Origin: Negativicutes bacterium
GTDB taxonomy: Bacteria; Bacillota; Negativicutes; UBA1444
Assembly: GCA_963665275.2 (NCBI GenBank)
Contig: CAXXIN010000016.1
Location: 32,001-96,000, forward strand
Length of the DNA: 64,000 nt
Direction of reading: 5' to 3'
Shown in pieces: positions 9,041 through 53,849 of the stretch; position 1 is the first letter of the stretch, and each line of letters starts with the position of its first letter. Under the pieces are notes generated by a model. It was not told the DNA's origin. It did no database searches and was given only the letters and a program-made list of their open reading frames with translations. The position numbers and the translations under genes are program-made.

Positions 9041-9158
9041 TGACGGACTCAAGTTTCTTACTCCGAAATACGCGATAGAAGCTTGTTATACTGGTCAGAT
9101 TAGCATGAAACATCTTTCACAGGGCTGGAAAATGCAATTGTTTGTCACTTCAGTTAAG

Positions 9159-9202
9159 AAAGCGCTCAGCGGCTGACACAGCAATTGTCAGGGGCGCTTT
9201 TT
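9159..9202 (+). terminator. Putative intrinsic terminator after the GlcD/GlcF pair
   Basis: aaagcgctc..ctgaca / tgtcag..gggcgcttt hairpin plus T tract. Confidence 0.55.
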
Positions 9203-9246
9203 AAATAAACCCAAAAATGCGTGAATATTGAGGGGAGGCCATCCAG

Positions 9247-10752
9247 TTGAACGTTTCATCCTGCGCCGCGTTGCGGCCGTACCGCGTTGCTTCCATTATA
9301 ACAGTCCTGGGTCTTTTTATTTTGTCCGCGATTCCTTCTGTGGCGCTGGCTGCGGAAACGGCCGGAGAGGCCCCCGATATCGGCAAAATACTGCCAATGT
9401 GGATGGGATTGCCGTTCGTAGGAATTCTGCTTTCGATTGCTCTGTGTCCGTTGGTAAATTCGCACTGGTGGGAGCATAACGAAGGCAAAGTCAGCCTATT
9501 CTGGGCACTCGCCTTTTTCATCCCTTTTGCTATGCTGTTGGATTTTTCTTCCGCCATCTATTATTGCCTTCACATGTACATCTTTGACTATATTCCCTTC
9601 ATCATTCTGCTCGGCAGCCTTTTCGTAATATCCGGCGGCATCATCGTCCGAGGAGCCCTAAAGGGTACACCGATCTTCAATTGCATTCTGCTGATCATCG
9701 GAACCCTCTTGGCAAGCCTGATTGGCACCACCGGCGCTTCCATGCTGATGATTCGGCCGGTTATCCGGGCCAATGCATTTCGCAAAGCCAAAGCGCATAC
9801 GATGATCTTTTTTATCTTTTTGGTCAGCAATGTTGGCGGGTCTCTGACCCCGCTCGGCGATCCGCCTCTTTTTCTGGGCTTTCTGCATGGAGTGCCCTTC
9901 TTTTGGACGCTTCGTTTAATTTTGCCGTTCCTTGTTACGGCTGGTATTGTGCTGGCAATTTACTACATGGTTGACTCCTACTATTATCGCAAGGATATAC
10001 CGCAGCCTGCAACCGAACCCTGCGGCTGTGATGAGGATAAGGAAGCGATCTGCGTCGACGGACTTTTCAACTTTTTGCTTCTGGCCGGAGTGGTTGCCGC
10101 CGTTGTCCTGGGCGGAATTTATATCAAGGACCCTATGTTTTACGACGCCAGTACCGACACCAAAATCGGGTTTTCGCTCATGGCCCTGCACGGCCATACC
10201 CTGATCCTGCCCTACCTGAATTTGCTCTTTAACGGAACCATCTTGCTGCTGGGCTTCTTGTCACTCAAGCTGACGCCTTCTTTAATCCGCGAAGACAATC
10301 ATTTCACCTGGGGACCGATCAAGGAAGTGGCGGTCTTGTTCGCCGGCATCTTTCTCACCATTATCCCTCCGATGGCGATTCTTCAGGCAAGGGGCGCCGA
10401 ACTTGGGGTTACGCAACCTTGGCAGTTTTTCTGGGCTTCGGGAGTATTATCCAGTTTCCTCGATAATGCACCGACCTACCTGACGTTCCTCAGCGTGGCT
10501 GTTGGTCTGGGCGCCAAAATCGGCGTAGTCACCGACATGGGAACCGTACCGGAACAGATCCTGATGGCGATCTCCTGCGGCTCCGTCTTCATGGGCGCCA
10601 ACTCCTATATCGGTAATGCACCGAATTTCATGGTGAAATCCATTGCTGAAGAAAACGATGTAGCGATGCCTTCCTTTTTCGGATACATGGCCTGGTCGTG
10701 CGCGATTCTGGTACCGACCTTCGTTGTGGTCACCTTCTTGTTCTTCCGGTAG
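9247..10752 (+). CDS. Putative sodium:proton antiporter / ion-transporter superfamily permease
   Basis: Many hydrophobic segments; IGTTGASM, GGSLTPLGDPPLFLG, SSFLDNAPTY, YIGNAPN. Confidence 0.8.
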   Translation: MNVSSCAALRPYRVASIITVLGLFILSAIPSVALAAETAGEAPDIGKILPMWMGLPFVGILLSIALCPLVNSHWWEHNEGKVSLFWALAFFIPFAMLLDFSSAIYYCLHMYIFDYIPFIILLGSLFVISGGIIVRGALKGTPIFNCILLIIGTLLASLIGTTGASMLMIRPVIRANAFRKAKAHTMIFFIFLVSNVGGSLTPLGDPPLFLGFLHGVPFFWTLRLILPFLVTAGIVLAIYYMVDSYYYRKDIPQPATEPCGCDEDKEAICVDGLFNFLLLAGVVAAVVLGGIYIKDPMFYDASTDTKIGFSLMALHGHTLILPYLNLLFNGTILLLGFLSLKLTPSLIREDNHFTWGPIKEVAVLFAGIFLTIIPPMAILQARGAELGVTQPWQFFWASGVLSSFLDNAPTYLTFLSVAVGLGAKIGVVTDMGTVPEQILMAISCGSVFMGANSYIGNAPNFMVKSIAEENDVAMPSFFGYMAWSCAILVPTFVVVTFLFFR

Positions 10753-10915
10753 CCGACAATGGCGATGTATATGGTGCGAACATGCGTTGAAACTTGAGTT
10801 AGGTAATGCAACGAATATTTGATATAATGAATCCAAAATGTTGAAATATGAACGGGCGTGCCGCCAGGTGGTACTGGGGCGAAAGCCCGCTTTGCATTTG
10901 GAAGGAGGCCGTGAA

Positions 10916-12664
10916 ATGACGCATGAAATACATGGCGCTTTGATCGAAAATCTGAGAATCTATCAAGAATGCATTGCCTGTTCACCTAATGGGGTTATTA
11001 TTGTTGACGACGAAGACCGAATTTTTGAATATAACAAATCGACTGAAATTTTGACAGGTATCAAACGAGAAATTGCATTAAAGCAGAGGTTTGTTGATGT
11101 TTTGCCACAAATAACGCTGGGGCTTATTTCTGAGGAAGAATGCCGGTGTGCGATTAATGATAGAGATCTTTTGATTAAAAAAGTGTTTGTTCAGGCAAAA
11201 GGAACTCGCGGTCATTACCAGATTCTTATATTACAAGATTTGTCGGCGACGGTTAAGATGGCCATGGAAGTTGAAAAAACGCAAGACGCAATCAAAGAAC
11301 TTGAGATGATACTTGAAGGATCGTTTGATGGTATTTTAGTAACGGATAAAGACTGCAATGTCTTGATGGTTAATCAAGCATACGGACGCTTAACAGCTAT
11401 TGGCAAAGAAGAAATGACCGGAAAAAATATGCGCGAGTTGCTGAACCCGGTGTATATGAAAAATTCGGTGGCATTGGTAGTTGCGGAAGAGAAACGAACA
11501 GTATCGATGCATCACACAACACGGCATGGAAAAAGTGTTATTGTTACAGGCACACCTGTTTTGGATAATAATGGGGATTTGTATCGGATTGTTATCAATC
11601 TTAGAGACATTTCGGAGATATATAAATTACGGGAAGAATTGTTAAAGGCAAAGGCAGTGGAAAAGGTTTATTTTCAAAAAATGATGACCGACGAAACGGC
11701 GGAAGAACAAGCGACAGTGGTCATCGCTGCAAATGAAAAAGTGCGTGAGATTTTTGCGCTAGCGAAAAAAATATGTAATTATAATGTGACAGTTCTCATT
11801 TTGGGAGAGTCTGGCGTCGGAAAAGAAGAAATGGCTAAATATATTCATGGCAGCAGTATTCGCAAAGATGCTCCTTTCATCGCCATTAATTGCGGCGCCA
11901 TACCGGAAAATCTATTGGAATCCGAACTGTTTGGTTATGATAAAGGCGCATTTACGGGTGCCGCTAAAGAGGGAAAAAAAGGGCTCTTTGAAATCGCCAA
12001 TGGAGGCACGTTGTTTTTAGATGAAATTGGTGATATGCCGTTAAATATGCAGGTGAAGTTGTTACGGTTTTTAGAAAACCGCGAAATCGTCAGAGTGGGC
12101 GCAACGGCGCCTACTTCCGTTGATGTTAGAATTTTGGTCGCAACGAATAAAGATTTGTGGAAAATGGTCGAGAAGGGATCCTTTCGCGAAGATTTATATT
12201 ACCGTTTGAATGTTGTGCAATTAAATATTCCACCGTTGCGAAATAGAAAGGAAGATATTCCTTTACTATGTCTCCATTTCTTACAAAAATACAATAGGCA
12301 ATACCAGCAAAACAAAAAAATGACTTATGATGTTATCAAAAACATGGAAGAACAGCCATGGAGAGGGAATATACGAGAATTGCGTAACACAATCGAAAAA
12401 ATGGTTGTTCTATGCAATAATGAATATTTGCAATTGGATGATTTGCCTTGGGCGAGCCTGGGCAACAAAAGAAATTCCTCTGCGCTTGAAGGAACCAGTG
12501 AGAATATAACTTTTAATGAAGCAATAGAGGCACTGGAAAGGAAATTGTTGAGCGAGGCGCTTCAGAAATATAAATCAACTCGAAAGATGGCCGAAGCGCT
12601 AAAAATTGACCAATCTTCTATTGTACGAAAGATGGAGAAGTATTGTTTAAAAAATAAAGAATAG
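10916..12664 (+). CDS. PAS-domain sigma54 enhancer-binding transcriptional activator
   Basis: Two PAS-like regions, GESGVGKE, GAFTGA, LFLDEI, FREDLYYRL, C-terminal HTH. Confidence 0.94.
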   Translation: MTHEIHGALIENLRIYQECIACSPNGVIIVDDEDRIFEYNKSTEILTGIKREIALKQRFVDVLPQITLGLISEEECRCAINDRDLLIKKVFVQAKGTRGHYQILILQDLSATVKMAMEVEKTQDAIKELEMILEGSFDGILVTDKDCNVLMVNQAYGRLTAIGKEEMTGKNMRELLNPVYMKNSVALVVAEEKRTVSMHHTTRHGKSVIVTGTPVLDNNGDLYRIVINLRDISEIYKLREELLKAKAVEKVYFQKMMTDETAEEQATVVIAANEKVREIFALAKKICNYNVTVLILGESGVGKEEMAKYIHGSSIRKDAPFIAINCGAIPENLLESELFGYDKGAFTGAAKEGKKGLFEIANGGTLFLDEIGDMPLNMQVKLLRFLENREIVRVGATAPTSVDVRILVATNKDLWKMVEKGSFREDLYYRLNVVQLNIPPLRNRKEDIPLLCLHFLQKYNRQYQQNKKMTYDVIKNMEEQPWRGNIRELRNTIEKMVVLCNNEYLQLDDLPWASLGNKRNSSALEGTSENITFNEAIEALERKLLSEALQKYKSTRKMAEALKIDQSSIVRKMEKYCLKNKE

Positions 12665-12925: not shown

Positions 12926-12940
12926 TGGCATGGTTATTGC
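12926..12940 (+). promoter_or_regulatory. Sigma54 (-24/-12) promoter of the dehydratase operon
   Basis: TGGCATGGTTATTGC, exact GG-N10-GC spacing, immediately downstream of the activator gene. Confidence 0.85.
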
Positions 12941-13000
12941 ATAGTCATCTTATATCAATCACTTACATTGCTACCCAAAATGAAAACGGGGGGATTGTTC

Positions 13001-22282: not shown

Positions 22283-22461
22283 CGCTACTAGTATCCTCCT
22301 ACAGTTTTATACGTGTACTTTTTTCGCTGGGTCCAGCATCTTCAAGCTATCGTTTTGAATTCGCTCACGTTTCAGCCGAGATCTTTTCAGGGACAATTAG
22401 TTCATTTATTCAATTACAGTCTATCTTCGCGTATAAATACATTTGCACGGTGAATAACCTA

Positions 22462-22476
22462 GCAATTATCGTGCCA
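22462..22476 (-). promoter_or_regulatory. Sigma54 promoter of the D-2-hydroxyacid dehydrogenase gene
   Basis: Minus strand TGGCACGATAATTGC, consensus -24/-12. Confidence 0.88.
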
Positions 22477-46890: not shown

Positions 46891-48285
46891 TTAGCTTTCC
46901 CAGATTTTGCCCGGATTGAGGATTCCCTTCGGGTCCAGCGCCTGTTTGATCGCTTTGTGGGCGTTGACGCCGGCTTCGCCCAGCGCGTTGATCAAGTAAG
47001 GCTTTTTGGTGATGCCGATGCCGTGCTCGCCGGAGAGTGTGCCGCCAACAGCCAGTGCTTCGGTGAAAATTTCGGCGATGGCATGGTGAACCTTGCCGGC
47101 ATGGTCAGGATTGGACATGTCGCATAAAACCGAAGGATGTACATTGCCGTCGCCGGCATGTCCGTAGACTGCAATTGTCAGGTCGTATTTCTCAGCGATC
47201 TTGCGGATGCGACGGATGATTTCCGGAAAAGCATCGCGGGGGACGGAGATGTCTTCGCCGAATCGGTTGGGAGCCATGGCGCCGATGGCAGAACTGAGGC
47301 CGCGGCGGATCGCCCAGATTTCTTCTGATTCTTTGAAGGATCCGGCGATGCGAACTTCTTTGACGCCGTGCTGACTGGCGATTTCTTTGATTTTTTCCGC
47401 TTGCGCGTCCAGGGTTGCACTGTCAGGTCCATCGATTTCGAGGATGATACAGGCGGCGATTGAGGGGTCGATGTCTAGCTTGCGGTGACGGGCAACGGCC
47501 TGAATACTGGTTTTGTCCATTAGCTCGGCAGCGGCGGGAATGAGTCCGGACTGCAGCATCGTATGGATGGTGCCGCAAGCTTCATCTAGGGAGGGGAACA
47601 TCAACTGCAGCGTATTTCGCGCCTTGGGCATAGGGATGAGGCGCAACAGGATTTTGGTGACAACGCCAAGAGTGCCTTCGGATCCGACCAGAAGCTGCGT
47701 CAGGTTATAACCGGTGACGTTTTTGATGGCTTTGCCGCCGGTTTGGATTACCGACCCGTCGGCCAACACGACTTCCAGGCCCATCACATAGTTGTTGGTT
47801 ACGCCATATTTGACAGCTCTCATGCCACCGGCATTCTCTGCAATGTTGCCGCCAAGGGTGGAGTATTTCCAGCTTGCAGGATCGGGTGGATAGAACAGGC
47901 CTTTTTCCGCACAATAATTATACAGGTCCATGGTACGAACACCTGCTTCAACATGGACCATCATATTCTTTTCATCCAACTCGAGTATTTTGTCCATGCG
48001 GGTCAGCGAAAGGGCTATGCCGCCTGAGAGCGGAATACTGCCGCCGGTGCGCCCGCTGGAAGTTCCGCGCGGAGTTACCGCAATCCCGTTGGTGTTGGCG
48101 AGCGCCATGACTGCCGAAACCTCTGCTGTCGTTGCAGGACGGACCACAACTTCTGGTTGGTTTTTGTCGGCTAGCGCAACAAAGGAGGAATCATACGAAT
48201 AACCGAAACGATCGATGTCCGAGTCCAGAACGTACTCCTTGCCGACAATGGAGCGTAGTTGATTCTTGAGGTCTTCATTGATCAT
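46891..48285 (-). CDS. GlcD-like FAD-linked oxidase subunit (second paralog)
   Basis: YPPDP, GSEGTLG, GHAGDGNVHP, LSGEHGIG, LNPGK. Confidence 0.91.
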   Translation of the reverse strand: MINEDLKNQLRSIVGKEYVLDSDIDRFGYSYDSSFVALADKNQPEVVVRPATTAEVSAVMALANTNGIAVTPRGTSSGRTGGSIPLSGGIALSLTRMDKILELDEKNMMVHVEAGVRTMDLYNYCAEKGLFYPPDPASWKYSTLGGNIAENAGGMRAVKYGVTNNYVMGLEVVLADGSVIQTGGKAIKNVTGYNLTQLLVGSEGTLGVVTKILLRLIPMPKARNTLQLMFPSLDEACGTIHTMLQSGLIPAAAELMDKTSIQAVARHRKLDIDPSIAACIILEIDGPDSATLDAQAEKIKEIASQHGVKEVRIAGSFKESEEIWAIRRGLSSAIGAMAPNRFGEDISVPRDAFPEIIRRIRKIAEKYDLTIAVYGHAGDGNVHPSVLCDMSNPDHAGKVHHAIAEIFTEALAVGGTLSGEHGIGITKKPYLINALGEAGVNAHKAIKQALDPKGILNPGKIWES

Positions 48286-48597
48286 CTAGACACTTCCCTC
48301 CTACGTTATGCTACAAATGTTTCGCCGGAGCAAGAACAAGTATAGTATTTGTATCTATTGATATCATAAAAGCTTGGATAAATACAATATAATGTAATAA
48401 TGTTATCATGAAATGCTTTCATGTATATGCTAATACTTCGATTTGTGTTATCGATCCAGCCGGATAGTTCGCACTATCTGGCAATAGTGCGCCAGCTTAG
48501 ACCATTGGTTGTAGTGAAAGATAAAGAGGACTTTCGGATAAATTATCGAAATATTGCGTAGACGCAGTTTTGATAAGTGTAAAATAGGGAGGGGAGC

Positions 48598-48756
48598 ATG
48601 AGGGTGACAGATGAGATTCAAAAGAAAGTAAATGAGATCATGGGTTGCGTCGAGGAAGAGACCACTGCCGTCGAAACCTTGGCTTTTGAACTGCAGCAAT
48701 TATCGGCAGTCAGCAATCAACTTTCATCCGCCATTATGGCTCAAGGCAAGATGTGA
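48598..48756 (+). CDS. 52-aa acidic coiled-coil microprotein (absent from ORF track)
   Basis: RBS agggagggg; MRVTDEIQKKVNEIMGCVEEETTAVETLAFELQQLSAVSNQLSSAIMAQGKM; hairpin immediately after the stop. Confidence 0.62.
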   Translation: MRVTDEIQKKVNEIMGCVEEETTAVETLAFELQQLSAVSNQLSSAIMAQGKM

Positions 48757-48797
48757 AATAGGCAGCTTTGCATATTTAATACGCAAAACTGCCTATT
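48757..48797. terminator. Hairpin / possible bidirectional terminator
   Basis: aataggcag(c)tttgc..gcaaaactgcctatt. Confidence 0.6.
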
Positions 48798-48847
48798 CGC
48801 TATTTCGGTTATTAATGTAAAAAGAAACGAATTTTTGAGAATTGATG

Positions 48848-48959
48848 TTCGCGGTCCGACACTACCAAGTGCCATGCTGACGAGCATTCATGCTGGTCAG
48901 GTGTTTGGCGCCATTTTGTCCTGCCGTACGCTGTCAGGAATCCCTGACAGGCCCGCGAA
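48848..48959 (-). ncRNA. Candidate structured ncRNA (multi-stem junction)
   Basis: Closing stem ttcgcgg/ccgcgaa encloses three hairpins; sigma54 promoter about 30 nt upstream on the same strand; no credible ORF. Confidence 0.45.
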
Positions 48960-48990
48960 TAGATTGCGTGAAACTGAAAAATATAAACAT

Positions 48991-49005
48991 GCAAGTATCG
49001 CGCCA
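48991..49005 (-). promoter_or_regulatory. Sigma54 promoter divergent from the activator gene
   Basis: Minus strand TGGCGCGATACTTGC, exact GG-N10-GC. Confidence 0.72.
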
Positions 49006-49107
49006 AGCTAATACTGTTTGGCGGTCAATGTTTATTTGAAGGGGAATGCAACCTGAAAAAATGGAGAGATTAGCTCACGGATAGTATGGAATGAAGGCGG
49101 ACACACT

Positions 49108-50490
49108 ATGAATGAAAAAAACACGGATATTGTTCAGGAAAATCAATTATTATGGCGATTGGTGGATTCTTCTTATGATGGAGTATTTTTGACTGATGCT
49201 GAGGGAGTTGTTGTATATTGCAACGAATCTTATCTGCAGATATCGGGATTGAAACGGGAAAAAATCATTGGACGGCAGATTGTTGAGATGGTAGAAGCTG
49301 GAGAAATCCCTGATGCATGCTCGCCGGACGTAATTGCGCAGAAAAAGCCTTTGACAAAGGTTATAAACTATTACCATGGGGTTTCGGCGCTCGTAACCAG
49401 CACGCCGATTTTCGATGAAAGTGGTCAGTTGATTCGTGTATTTTCAAATGTCAGAGATATTACCCAATTAATTCAGCTCAAGGAAAAGCTGGGTGAATAT
49501 TCGCGACGGTTGCGGCAAGCAGAACGGGCAGGCCGGGATGATACAAGAATGTTGGCTGTCAGCAAAGAAATGGAAGACATTGTAAAGACGGCGACGCGCG
49601 TGGCGAGCTTTTCCTCGCCGGTTCTGATTCAGGGCGAGTCTGGCGTGGGAAAGGATATGTTGGCGCGATATATCCATGATTGTAGTGATGTATCCGAAAA
49701 TCGGCCCTTTGTGCAGATCAATTGTAGTGCGATTCCCGAAACTCTTTTGGAATCTGAACTTTTTGGCTATGAATCCGGCGCCTTTACCGGCGCCTCGACT
49801 AAAGGGAAAATTGGGCTGCTGGAGCTGGCCAATAACGGGACCTTGTTTTTGGACGAAATTGGTGAAATGCCTATGTCATTGCAAGTTAAAATGCTGCAGG
49901 TCCTTCAGACTAGCACAATGTTTCGAGTAGGGGGAACAAAAAAAGTCGAATTGACTACGCGTATTATCGCGGCGACCAACAATGATCTAAATAAATTGAT
50001 GGCGGTTGGCCGGTTTCGGCAAGATCTGTTTTATCGCCTGAATGTTATCCCGATTTACATCCCGCCATTACGCGAGCGAAAGGCAGACCTGATTCCGCTG
50101 ATATACCACTTTCTCGAAAAGAAAAATCTTAAATTTAATCTCAACCGCAAATTATTGCCGTCGGCGATGGAAATTTTGTCAAATTACGATTGGCCCGGCA
50201 ATGTGCGTGAATTGAATAACGTGATTGAACGTATGATGATTATGACGGAAGGCAATGTAATCGATGAAAAAAGCATCCCGCAATTCATTACGCAGTCCGT
50301 TAAAAAGCCTTTATACATCGATACCCCCGATTACTTTGACTCGTTTGATTTGGGCGAAATCATCACGACAGTGGAAAAAGAAGTGATTCGCAAAGCGATA
50401 GCAGAGTTTGGGGCATTGCGCAATGTTTCTGAGCATTTAGGAATTGATCTGTCTACACTCGTTCGCAAAAAGCGAAAGTATAAACTGTAA
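49108..50490 (+). CDS. PAS-domain sigma54 enhancer-binding transcriptional activator
   Basis: PAS region, GESGVGKD, GAFTGA, LFLDEI, WPGNVREL, C-terminal HTH. Confidence 0.94.
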   Translation: MNEKNTDIVQENQLLWRLVDSSYDGVFLTDAEGVVVYCNESYLQISGLKREKIIGRQIVEMVEAGEIPDACSPDVIAQKKPLTKVINYYHGVSALVTSTPIFDESGQLIRVFSNVRDITQLIQLKEKLGEYSRRLRQAERAGRDDTRMLAVSKEMEDIVKTATRVASFSSPVLIQGESGVGKDMLARYIHDCSDVSENRPFVQINCSAIPETLLESELFGYESGAFTGASTKGKIGLLELANNGTLFLDEIGEMPMSLQVKMLQVLQTSTMFRVGGTKKVELTTRIIAATNNDLNKLMAVGRFRQDLFYRLNVIPIYIPPLRERKADLIPLIYHFLEKKNLKFNLNRKLLPSAMEILSNYDWPGNVRELNNVIERMMIMTEGNVIDEKSIPQFITQSVKKPLYIDTPDYFDSFDLGEIITTVEKEVIRKAIAEFGALRNVSEHLGIDLSTLVRKKRKYKL

Positions 50491-50723
50491 AGTCGCCTTT
50501 ACATCGAGAAAATCGGTAAATTAAGTTTGGTAAAGCTAAATTAGTAAGCTGTCAGTGACATTGCTGCGCACGTGCATATGCAATAATGCTCACGGCAGCT
50601 TTTTATATTTGCGGCGCAATCAAGTCGCTGAATTGTCTGATAAATTATTATAAGCCGCTACAGCCCCAATCGGCGCGATGGATGCCGGTTTGTGAAAGAA
50701 AAACAGGCAAAAGACGTTATTGT

Positions 50724-50738
50724 TGGCATATATAATGC
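50724..50738 (+). promoter_or_regulatory. Sigma54 promoter upstream of a small ORF
   Basis: TGGCATATATAATGC, exact spacing, downstream of the activator gene. Confidence 0.7.
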
Positions 50739-50794
50739 ATAGTTAGTGAGTCAACAGAGGACGCGCGAATAGTAAAAATGAGGAGGAGAAAAAA

Positions 50795-50980
50795 ATGAGT
50801 GTCGCGACCATTACTCGTGACGGATCGGCAAGAGTTTCTGATGAATTGATCAACGCTTTTCTCACATTGGAGTCACTGACAAATATGCTTAGAATGTCGG
50901 AAACAGTTATAAATTTCTCGACCAACGAATATGAGGTATTGATGGATAGCCTTATCGAAGAATATGGCAATAAAATTTAG
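50795..50980 (+). CDS. 61-aa acidic hypothetical microprotein
   Basis: Strong RBS gaggaggag; follows sigma54 promoter; long hairpin downstream. Confidence 0.7.
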   Translation: MSVATITRDGSARVSDELINAFLTLESLTNMLRMSETVINFSTNEYEVLMDSLIEEYGNKI

Positions 50981-51008
50981 AATGATTCAAGTAATGCAGG
51001 GCCTTGAA

Positions 51009-51065
51009 ATTACCCGCCCCCTTGTGATGGTTATATTACATGACCATTGCAAGGGGGCGGGTAAT
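51009..51065 (+). other. 26-bp RNA hairpin between two microprotein genes
   Basis: Fully paired, with three G-U wobbles on the + strand; no U tract. Confidence 0.6.
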
Positions 51066-51139
51066 AAATGAAACATTTCAGCAACTATCGACCACTACTT
51101 TAAAAGCTCGACTCATGGTGGATAGAAAGGAAGTGCAAT

Positions 51140-51334
51140 ATGGAATCTTTCGTTAAAGAAATGCAAGACAGTGCTCCTATTGAACCCATCTATTCCTGGA
51201 CTGAAATGAAAAGCAAGATTAACTCACCGGCAGCTGCGGTTACCGAATGCACGTGTTCAACCCTTCACATGGCAGTTCATGATGCAATGTGCCCGGGCTG
51301 TTGGGCAAGGCTGATTGAACGAATGGGTCACTGA
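51140..51334 (+). CDS. 64-aa microprotein with Cys/His-rich C-terminus
   Basis: RBS gaaaggaag; CTC-x11-CPGC; terminator at 51381-51422. Confidence 0.68.
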   Translation: MESFVKEMQDSAPIEPIYSWTEMKSKINSPAAAVTECTCSTLHMAVHDAMCPGCWARLIERMGH

Positions 51335-51380
51335 GGTAGGATACGTTCCTGGAAGAGATTCTTAAAGGATGACATTGTTT

Positions 51381-51422
51381 AAGCGGCTCTCACCTGAAAT
51401 GATAGATGAGGGCTGCTTTTTT
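51381..51422 (+). terminator. Intrinsic terminator
   Basis: aagcggctctca..tgagggctgctt plus T run. Confidence 0.7.
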
Positions 51423-51492
51423 GTGTAGCTGTCACCTCATGAAAAAAGCGATATAATAATAAAGGCATTTGATTGGTTGAGGAGAGTTATGA

Positions 51493-53591: not shown

Positions 53592-53849
53592 ATGAAGGCG
53601 ATAGAGCTTGGCAATGAATTAAAGCAGGACGCTATAGGCGGCATCAAACTGTTTTTTCAGCAACAACGGGATGAGGAGTTGAGTGATTTTCAAGCAGCGA
53701 CTATTTTAGAGTTTATTCTCGCCGAGCTTGGTCCGCATATCTATAATCAGGCATTGGCGGATGCTCATACCCTGATGAGCAAGCAAATTGAAGAGTTGTA
53801 CGGACTGCAAAAATCACCACGTTCGTCGCTTGGCCGTCTGAAAAAGTGA
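53592..53849 (+). CDS. DUF2164 family protein
   Basis: RDEELSDFQA..ILEFI..LGPHIYNQAL.DA pattern; 85 aa. Confidence 0.8.
   Translation: MKAIELGNELKQDAIGGIKLFFQQQRDEELSDFQAATILEFILAELGPHIYNQALADAHTLMSKQIEELYGLQKSPRSSLGRLKK

Follow-up and report, generated by a model that had tools for sequence, protein, structure and literature searches.

Enhancer-binding proteins normally switch enzyme or structural operons. The few that act only through small RNAs (sRNAs), i.e. LuxO, GlrR and CbrB, are central regulators in Proteobacteria. The LuxO, sigma54 and Qrr sRNA system of Vibrio is the subject of published work (PMC4878744, PMC11407668). Here we analysed a locus built around one sigma54 enhancer-binding protein gene in a 64,000-nucleotide (nt) stretch of Negativicutes DNA (the window; positions 32001-96000 of contig 16 of genome G000, a 3.97-Mb assembly of 20 contigs that is 92.6% complete). 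This locus is likely to be a self-contained sigma54 regulatory module, comprising the activator, two outward-facing promoters, and RNA and microprotein outputs. The observed basis is the protein domains, the conserved promoters, covariation in the RNA, purifying selection on microprotein A and the synteny of the module; from these we infer transcription, binding of the activator to a palindrome, and roles for the RNA and the proteins. The close relatives found in public genomes are all metagenome-assembled genomes (MAGs) labelled uncultured Veillonellaceae or Negativicutes.

In the LuxO-Qrr, GlrR-GlmY and CbrB-CrcZ systems, the enhancer-binding protein acts directly on sigma54 promoters of small regulatory RNAs and not of enzyme operons, as would be the case in the module here. 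LuxO, GlrR and CbrB are, however, response regulators with receiver domains from Proteobacteria, whereas the activator here has a PAS sensor and comes from Negativicutes. Their RNAs are Hfq-dependent base-pairing RNAs or protein sponges; in contrast, the RNA here is a predicted three-way junction derived from an mRNA leader, has microproteins as a co-output, and belongs to no Rfam family. EutX and Rli55, the orphan riboswitch-derived sRNAs, offer a second comparison: there, a leader or aptamer RNA ends at a terminator without a downstream open reading frame (ORF) and acts in trans. The module RNA is similar in layout but, unlike EutX and Rli55, no expression platform was found for it and its riboswitch status is putative. 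RNA plus microproteins thus appears to be an unusual output for such a regulator, and literature searches on sigma54 or enhancer-binding proteins with small RNAs or small proteins in Firmicutes/Negativicutes, covering result listings and the opening parts of abstracts, returned no relevant earlier description of such a module.

The main features of the locus, in window coordinates, are:

49108..50490, plus strand: enhancer-binding protein gene (PAS sensor, AAA+ sigma54-interaction domain with GAFTGA, Fis-type helix-turn-helix)
48990..49005, minus strand: sigma54 -24/-12 promoter TGGCGCGATACTTGCA, one mismatch to consensus
50724..50739, plus strand: sigma54 -24/-12 promoter TGGCATATATAATGCA, conserved
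48752..48979, minus strand: predicted sigma54-dependent small RNA, ~228 nt, with ends deduced from promoter and terminator
48758..48797, no strand assigned: hairpin T1, terminator of the small RNA (formerly also of a chemoreceptor-like gene), -27.4 kcal/mol on the minus strand and -21.4 kcal/mol on the plus strand
50546..50601, plus strand: hairpin T2, which terminates the activator gene; -22.7 kcal/mol, with a U run after it
50795..50980, plus strand: microprotein A, 61 amino acids (aa), predicted helical, strong Shine-Dalgarno sequence
51140..51334, plus strand: microprotein B, 64 aa, invariant C-x-C-x3-H-x3-H-x3-C-x2-C
51381..51424, plus strand: intrinsic terminator closing the sigma54 unit, -19.8 kcal/mol, U6

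In the model that we propose, a cytoplasmic signal sensed by the PAS domain would activate the enhancer-binding protein, which would bind an inverted repeat, TTGCRTA-N5-6-TAYGCAA, at the apexes of T1 and T2, the hairpins that bracket its own gene. ATP hydrolysis by the activator would then open both outward promoters. The plus-strand promoter would give a ~675-nt mRNA that encodes microproteins A and B and ends at the intrinsic terminator, and the minus-strand promoter would give the ~228-nt RNA, whose core is homologous to the 5' leader of the microprotein-A gene in relatives. Leader and ORF have presumably been split apart in this subgroup of the genus; being uncoupled and closed by a terminator, the leader most probably works as a free regulatory RNA. 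The flanking dehydrogenase genes would not be targets, and a 52-aa ORF next to T1 is a relic. A reading made earlier from the sequence alone (the sequence-only reading) had proposed an undescribed sRNA/microprotein module between two flavin/Fe-S dehydrogenase loci. Its core, that the flanking promoters serve a small RNA and microproteins and not the dehydrogenase genes, is supported by conservation; a functional tie to the flanking flavin/Fe-S loci is not, since the module has other neighbourhoods in G010, G002 and G003, and in G012.

Activator, promoters and palindrome

The PAS-GAFTGA activator recognised at 49108-50490 by the sequence-only reading was confirmed by its Pfam domains: Sigma54_activat (PF00158, 8.2e-66) at residues 150-316, with GAFTGA in the translation, together with AAA_lid_14, PAS_9/PAS_4 at residues 19-121 and HTH_8/HTH_50 at residues 414-459. 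We compared six orthologous loci of the same genus (G000, G006, G009, G008, G001 and G005), the activators of which are 77-85% identical; over a wider range of orthologs the identity is 67-85%. The helix-turn-helix is invariant across the nine orthologs aligned. The best-scoring named family is PrdR, the sigma54 activator of Clostridia proline reductase genes, with activator residues 8-458 aligned. Identity with PrdR was rejected: the score against the equivalog model NF041552 was 421.2 bits vs a cut-off of 795, and only model positions 129-576 were matched. Unlike PrdR, the activator leaves the first 128 model positions uncovered, and there are no prd genes among the ORFs listed in and around the locus. 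On this comparison the protein is PrdR-like, and not PrdR.

Both promoters lie at the same places in 6/6 of the same-genus loci, and the genome encodes sigma54 itself (rpoN; PF04552, 5.3e-57), so that the earlier proposal of a -24/-12 promoter on each side of the activator has held. The minus-strand promoter reads TGGCGCGAWWCTTGCA in G009, G008, G001 and G005 and TGGCTCGAAACTTGCA in G006, with exact GG/GC spacing in all six loci. In the plus-strand promoter, TTGGCAY-N5-ATGCAT is invariant in all six whilst its surroundings have diverged. From the stop codon of the activator to the small ORFs, a phylogenetic footprint shows conservation only of the hairpin apex, a short A/T-rich patch and the promoter. 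The case for the promoters rests on this conservation, because sigma54-promoter matches are not enriched over the whole window (31 found vs 38 expected at <=2 mismatches, i.e. not above chance).

The apex of T1, whose stem covaries among the six orthologs, carries the palindrome TTGCATA-N5-TACGCAA (48768-48786), a candidate activator-binding site. The apex of T2 (50564-50583) carries cTGCGCA-N6-TATGCAA, a degenerate copy ~150 nt upstream of the plus-strand promoter; the enhancer-like sites noticed previously at 50563-50592 are this hairpin apex and its copy of the conserved palindrome. TTGCRTA-N4-7-TAYGCAA has a single exact match in the 3.97-Mb genome, at the T1 apex. Exact sites number seven across 13 genomes of the family, against one for the reversed control. 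This locus accounts for five: T1 in G000 and G006, T2 in G005 and G008 and, in G012, a position ~140 nt ahead of the B promoter. The two off-locus sites fall inside acetate-kinase-like and oxidoreductase-like coding regions. The palindrome TTGCRTA-N5-6-TAYGCAA marks the locus and is the likely site for the activator.

Elsewhere in the window, two further sigma54-promoter matches were seen. TGGCACGATAATTGCT (22461-22476, minus strand) has no mismatches and lies upstream of the ORF at 22282-21302. TGGCATGGTTATTGCA (12926-12941, plus strand), a good match, lies ~260 nt past the ORF at 10838-12664, which spans another sigma54-activator match (G000:C16:43273-44646, i.e. window 11273-12646); the stretch from that ORF to the promoter match contains a terminator hairpin and GCTGCATATTGC.

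The minus-strand RNA and its leader family

The structured non-coding stretch that the earlier reading placed behind the minus-strand promoter is confirmed. The window copy folds with a minimum free energy (MFE) of -77 kcal/mol (z = -5.5) and, across six orthologs of 71% mean identity, the consensus fold has 55 pairs, 16 of which show compensatory changes. The RNA consists of a three-way-junction core (48844-48965), a poorly conserved tail of ~55 nt and the terminator hairpin T1. The core is closed by an invariant helix, UUCGCGG/CCGCGAA, and also carries a short hairpin plus a long arm, the tip of which is deleted in G005.

To search for homologs we used a covariance model of the core (R1) and a second model rebuilt on 10 sequences (R2, from the model-based alignment A9); the RNA alignment as a whole comprised 10-13 sequences from related genomes. 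In A9, 25 of 37 pairs show compensatory changes and 92% of cells are paired, vs 34-43% with slid partners, counts that are inflated because the alignment was fitted to the structure. A MAFFT alignment of the sRNAs with the leaders (A8) misaligned the 5' halves and was left unused in favour of A9.

An R1 match in G012 sits exactly between a sigma54 promoter and the 61-aa protein gene, and further R1 copies occur in G011 and G008. R2 located 15 copies; they are spread over 10 of the 151 genomes sampled from the class and confined to families f1 and f27 (the G104 copy is weak, E 0.005). The window's own genome has a single copy. R2 matches A-gene leaders in G012 (E 3e-18) and G136 (9e-14) and, with filters off, also those of G011, G002 and G010 (E 1e-5 to 1e-3). 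A pattern scan of genome contigs for the sRNA core returned five sister MAGs only, all of them already known. The earlier claim of an undescribed sRNA can thus be kept in part: the RNA is structured and has no match in Rfam, but it does not stand alone, being a member of a family of leader RNAs whose usual place is ahead of the 61-aa gene. For the window RNA, Rfam 15 gave no family and only chance miRNA-like matches on the terminator hairpins of the window; nothing was found at the RNA-copy sites L084-L086. A degenerate-pattern metagenome scan for more leaders gave 30 loci, none of which (0/30) contained R2 at E <= 0.01, and these were set aside as chance matches.

Other copies of the fold precede unrelated genes: a GDSL-type hydrolase gene (L085, G011:C403; L116, G006:C416; L117, G009:C186), a gene for a cyclic-nucleotide-binding (cNMP-binding, Crp-like) regulator (L086, G008:C199; L113, G005:C13) and a gene for a dCache-HAMP-MCP chemoreceptor (L118, G006:C165; MCP, methyl-accepting chemotaxis protein). 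There is no sigma54 promoter match near the hydrolase, regulator or chemoreceptor copies. A covarying structured core is thus found upstream of several unrelated genes in relatives, and these copies suggest a cis-regulatory, riboswitch-like family restricted to these lineages. By eye, a pyrimidine-rich 5' strand in the leader of relatives has two complementary partners, a purine-rich 3' strand and the Shine-Dalgarno sequence, which suggests translational control of A by the leader. Pairing of the sRNA with the 5' untranslated region (UTR) of microprotein A was considered on the basis of a 9-nt complementarity in the window (CUAUUCGCG with CGCGAAUAG); it is absent in G005 and G008 and was dropped. 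CGCGAAUAG (50762-50775) is complementary to the 5' strand of the sRNA closing helix (48957-48965) and may be a leftover of the leader 3' strand.

Beyond T1 lie a convergent small ORF and the scar of a deletion:

48598..48756, plus strand: 52-aa ORF, 3'-terminal remnant, in the ancestral frame, of a gene for a 415-419-aa soluble protein with an MCP signalling domain
48432..48587, no strand assigned: deletion scar of 156 nt without relation to the ancestral gene; the corresponding stretch of G005 is 1215 nt long (5' UTR plus ~364 codons)

With 63-68% identity, the 52-aa ORF matches the C-terminal ends of open frames in G009, G005, G001 and G008 that are 415-426 aa long. In the 419-aa homolog of G005, MCPsignal covers residues 244-412 (1.5e-28) and the N-terminal half has no domain assignment; the 52-aa ORF corresponds to the last 52 residues of that homolog only, with no Pfam match and hence no complete MCPsignal. 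Using blastn, window segments 48200-48431 and 48588-48798 match G005 and G009 whilst the stretch between is unmatched, and the 156-nt filler has no second copy in the genome. The scar is bridged without any difference by contigs of two studies, although one of these may be the window's own source. A third small ORF converging on the RNA, as described earlier, is therefore present and convergent but, by comparison with these relatives, it is deletion debris, the remnant of a deleted chemoreceptor-like gene.

This deletion bears on an alternative in which the minus-strand RNA is a cis-acting leader, an attenuator or riboswitch: read-through of T1 would pass antisense through the MCP remnant into the glcD/ldhH-like genes (48285-45649, same strand), and the promoter would control a catabolic operon. 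The RNA family does act as a 5' leader elsewhere, the succession of aptamer-like core, linker and terminator resembles an attenuator, and following the deletion the glcD-like gene begins only ~470 nt beyond T1 on the same strand. In five sister species, however, a full convergent gene of 1.25 kb lies between T1 and glcD, and G005 shares the conserved region upstream of glcD, which has sigma70-like hexamers. Conservation of the linker is poor, and there is no conserved antiterminator; partners for the 5' arm of T1 are weak (2-6 kcal/mol) and differ in each species. Nor does the window copy show an expression platform, and before T1 there is no ORF on the minus strand. We regard this alternative as unlikely.

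Microproteins and neighbouring genes

Microprotein A has 11 close relatives of 61-67 aa. Among 1.84 billion sequences, 13 cluster representatives matched at E <= 1e-3, ~11 of them convincing, and the ESM Atlas gave no match >0.78. The A profile was found in 9 of 12 other f1 genomes, and weakly in G200 and G119 (f25) and in G136 (f27). We counted the 12 A loci with upstream sequence, excluding G004 (contig edge). A sigma54-promoter match precedes the A start codon in 11/12 loci, where the chance rate of the pattern used is ~0.02 per 330 nt by our own arithmetic. The distance from promoter to start codon is ~205-229 nt where the leader is present and ~56-60 nt in G000, G008 and G005. An ortholog of the activator adjoins A in 11/12 loci across three families, including those of G200, G119 and G136. 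The recurrence of activator, promoter and 61-aa gene together in differing genomic contexts is the synteny that the sequence-only reading had proposed to look for. In G007 (L105, G007:C34), the exception, A is kept but the 5' half of the leader is missing, with no promoter match upstream and no activator ORF on the 2.2-kb piece; this copy may be decaying or re-wired.

Estimates of dN/dS for A, taken from pairs with dS below ~1.4 (many pairs being saturated and uninformative), were 0.07 (G010/G002), 0.06 (G010/G011), 0.44 (G008/G005) and 0.33 (G000/G008). On these ratios, none of which is near the value of 1 that the earlier reading had named as evidence against a genuine gene, microprotein A is under purifying selection. 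In the group-B loci (G010, G002 and G003) the A gene converges on an fdhA-like gene, so that nothing lies downstream and A is monocistronic. The fdhA-like gene of group B (L068 9009-11693 in G010, L070, L071) is split into frames of 350 aa and 539-546 aa, which could reflect a selenocysteine TGA.

Relatives of microprotein B are 86%, 78%, 47% (G008) and 29% (G012) identical, and among 41 genomes B is convincing in G000, G008 and G012 only. In G012, B has its own sigma54 promoter, TGGCGCAAATCTTGCA. With its Cys4His2 pattern, B is probably metal-binding. YgbA_NO (PF11756) was considered as its family, on an ESM Atlas lead of 0.88 only, and was not adopted as hmmscan found no family at E <= 0.1. 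Both small ORFs, A and B, are present and are followed by the U6 hairpin listed above, in line with the earlier description of 61-aa and 64-aa ORFs closed by a terminator. Two further elements lie between and beyond these genes:

51016..51058, plus strand: 19-bp hairpin between the small ORFs, perfect, -33.6 kcal/mol, without a U run; absent in G008
51429..51457, plus strand: sigma70-like promoter CTGTCA-17-TATAAT of the 2Fe-2S/flavoprotein genes, outside the module, conserved

The 19-bp hairpin may serve in RNA processing or stability, or as a partial terminator. The -10 element of the 2Fe-2S gene is GCGATATAATAA in four loci (including G005, G008 and G006) and GGTATAATATAA in G009. A DUF2164 gene (3.1e-22; 53592-53849) directly follows the flavoprotein gene.

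These enzyme genes suggest another alternative, in which the plus-strand promoter serves the 2Fe-2S and flavoprotein (TfrB/TfrA-like) genes by read-through and the small ORFs are leader peptides or incidental. In every group-A locus that extends far enough, the enzyme genes come next and point the same way, and activators of this type usually stand beside enzyme operons. Yet in 5/5 of those loci the small-ORF unit ends in a hairpin plus T's and is then followed by the conserved sigma70-like -10 before the 2Fe-2S gene. Purifying selection on microprotein A also speaks against an incidental ORF, and A keeps its promoter and activator where these enzymes are absent. Read-through into the enzyme genes is, in our view, quite improbable.

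Weight of evidence and significance

Several observations count against a self-contained module with RNA and microprotein outputs. The predicted transcript starts and ends, and the sigma54 dependence, are all deductions from sequence. The genome contains ~30 paralogs of the activator (30 matches at E <= 1e-60), so another paralog could serve either promoter. T1 is downstream, and not upstream, of the minus-strand promoter, an atypical position for an enhancer, and the T2 of the window holds a degenerate copy of the palindrome. The larger RNA alignment was fitted to its structure, and MFE favours neither strand of the RNA. The structure models are of low confidence, both for A (AF2; pLDDT, the predicted local distance difference test score, of 66.6; two long helices) and for B (pLDDT 54). 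The module is carried by uncultured genomes only. Finally, G009, G001 and G006 have, downstream of the plus-strand promoter, other tiny ORFs in place of A and B, which indicates that the protein output is not fixed and that the cassette is variable. The cassette there holds a 23-25-aa MF(D/G)VT...DGNRR peptide together with another ORF, of 57-72 aa. The 23-25-aa ORF has a strong Shine-Dalgarno sequence and takes the MFDVT form in G009 (L036 ~9140-9400) and G001 (L042), and the MFGVT form in G006 (L072 ~2180-2330).

The strand of the RNA allows a further alternative, in which the conserved structure belongs to the plus strand, either as a 5' leader ahead of the activator gene or as the 3' UTR of the MCP gene, and the minus-strand -24/-12 match is some other conserved binding site. 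The element is directly upstream of the activator gene and, in 4/6 orthologs, the MFE of the opposite strand is similar or lower. Our assignment to the minus strand relies instead on the orientation of homologs, since every homologous leader lies on the sense strand of the gene that it precedes; on the ratio of G-U to A-C pairs in the helices, which is 24:9 on the minus strand; on the direction of a promoter match that keeps exact spacing in every same-genus locus; and on T1, which is 6 kcal/mol more stable on the minus strand. A plus-strand structure thus seems very unlikely. That the whole stretch is functionless, decaying debris of a larger operon is scarcely credible: the 52-aa ORF is debris and the small ORFs after the plus-strand promoter differ among species, but conservation, covariation and purifying selection contradict it and the module recurs in three families. 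The deletion debris that the sequence-only reading had allowed for applies to the 52-aa ORF, the remnant of the 415-419-aa MCP-signalling gene.

A more speculative extension of the self-contained module, which we put forward tentatively and think rather doubtful, is that the core may be the aptamer of an undescribed class of riboswitches, or else the place where an RNA-binding factor docks, confined to a few Negativicutes lineages. Activator, promoter, leader and A would then form an ancient two-input switch that takes a PAS signal and an RNA signal. In the window, the leader would have been freed as a sigma54-dependent orphan-riboswitch sRNA, and A (with B) might feed back on the activator or on flanking redox or chemosensory proteins.

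Three parts of the locus are absent from the libraries searched: the covarying RNA fold, the 61-aa family (about a dozen cluster representatives among the 1.84 billion) and the Cys4His2 microprotein. The promoter and the palindrome are recognisable and link these parts, so that experiments can be designed straight from the sequence. The locus looks like a design in Negativicutes that is comparable to those of LuxO, GlrR and CbrB, and it would show how a leader RNA can lose the link to its gene and yet persist as a free RNA.

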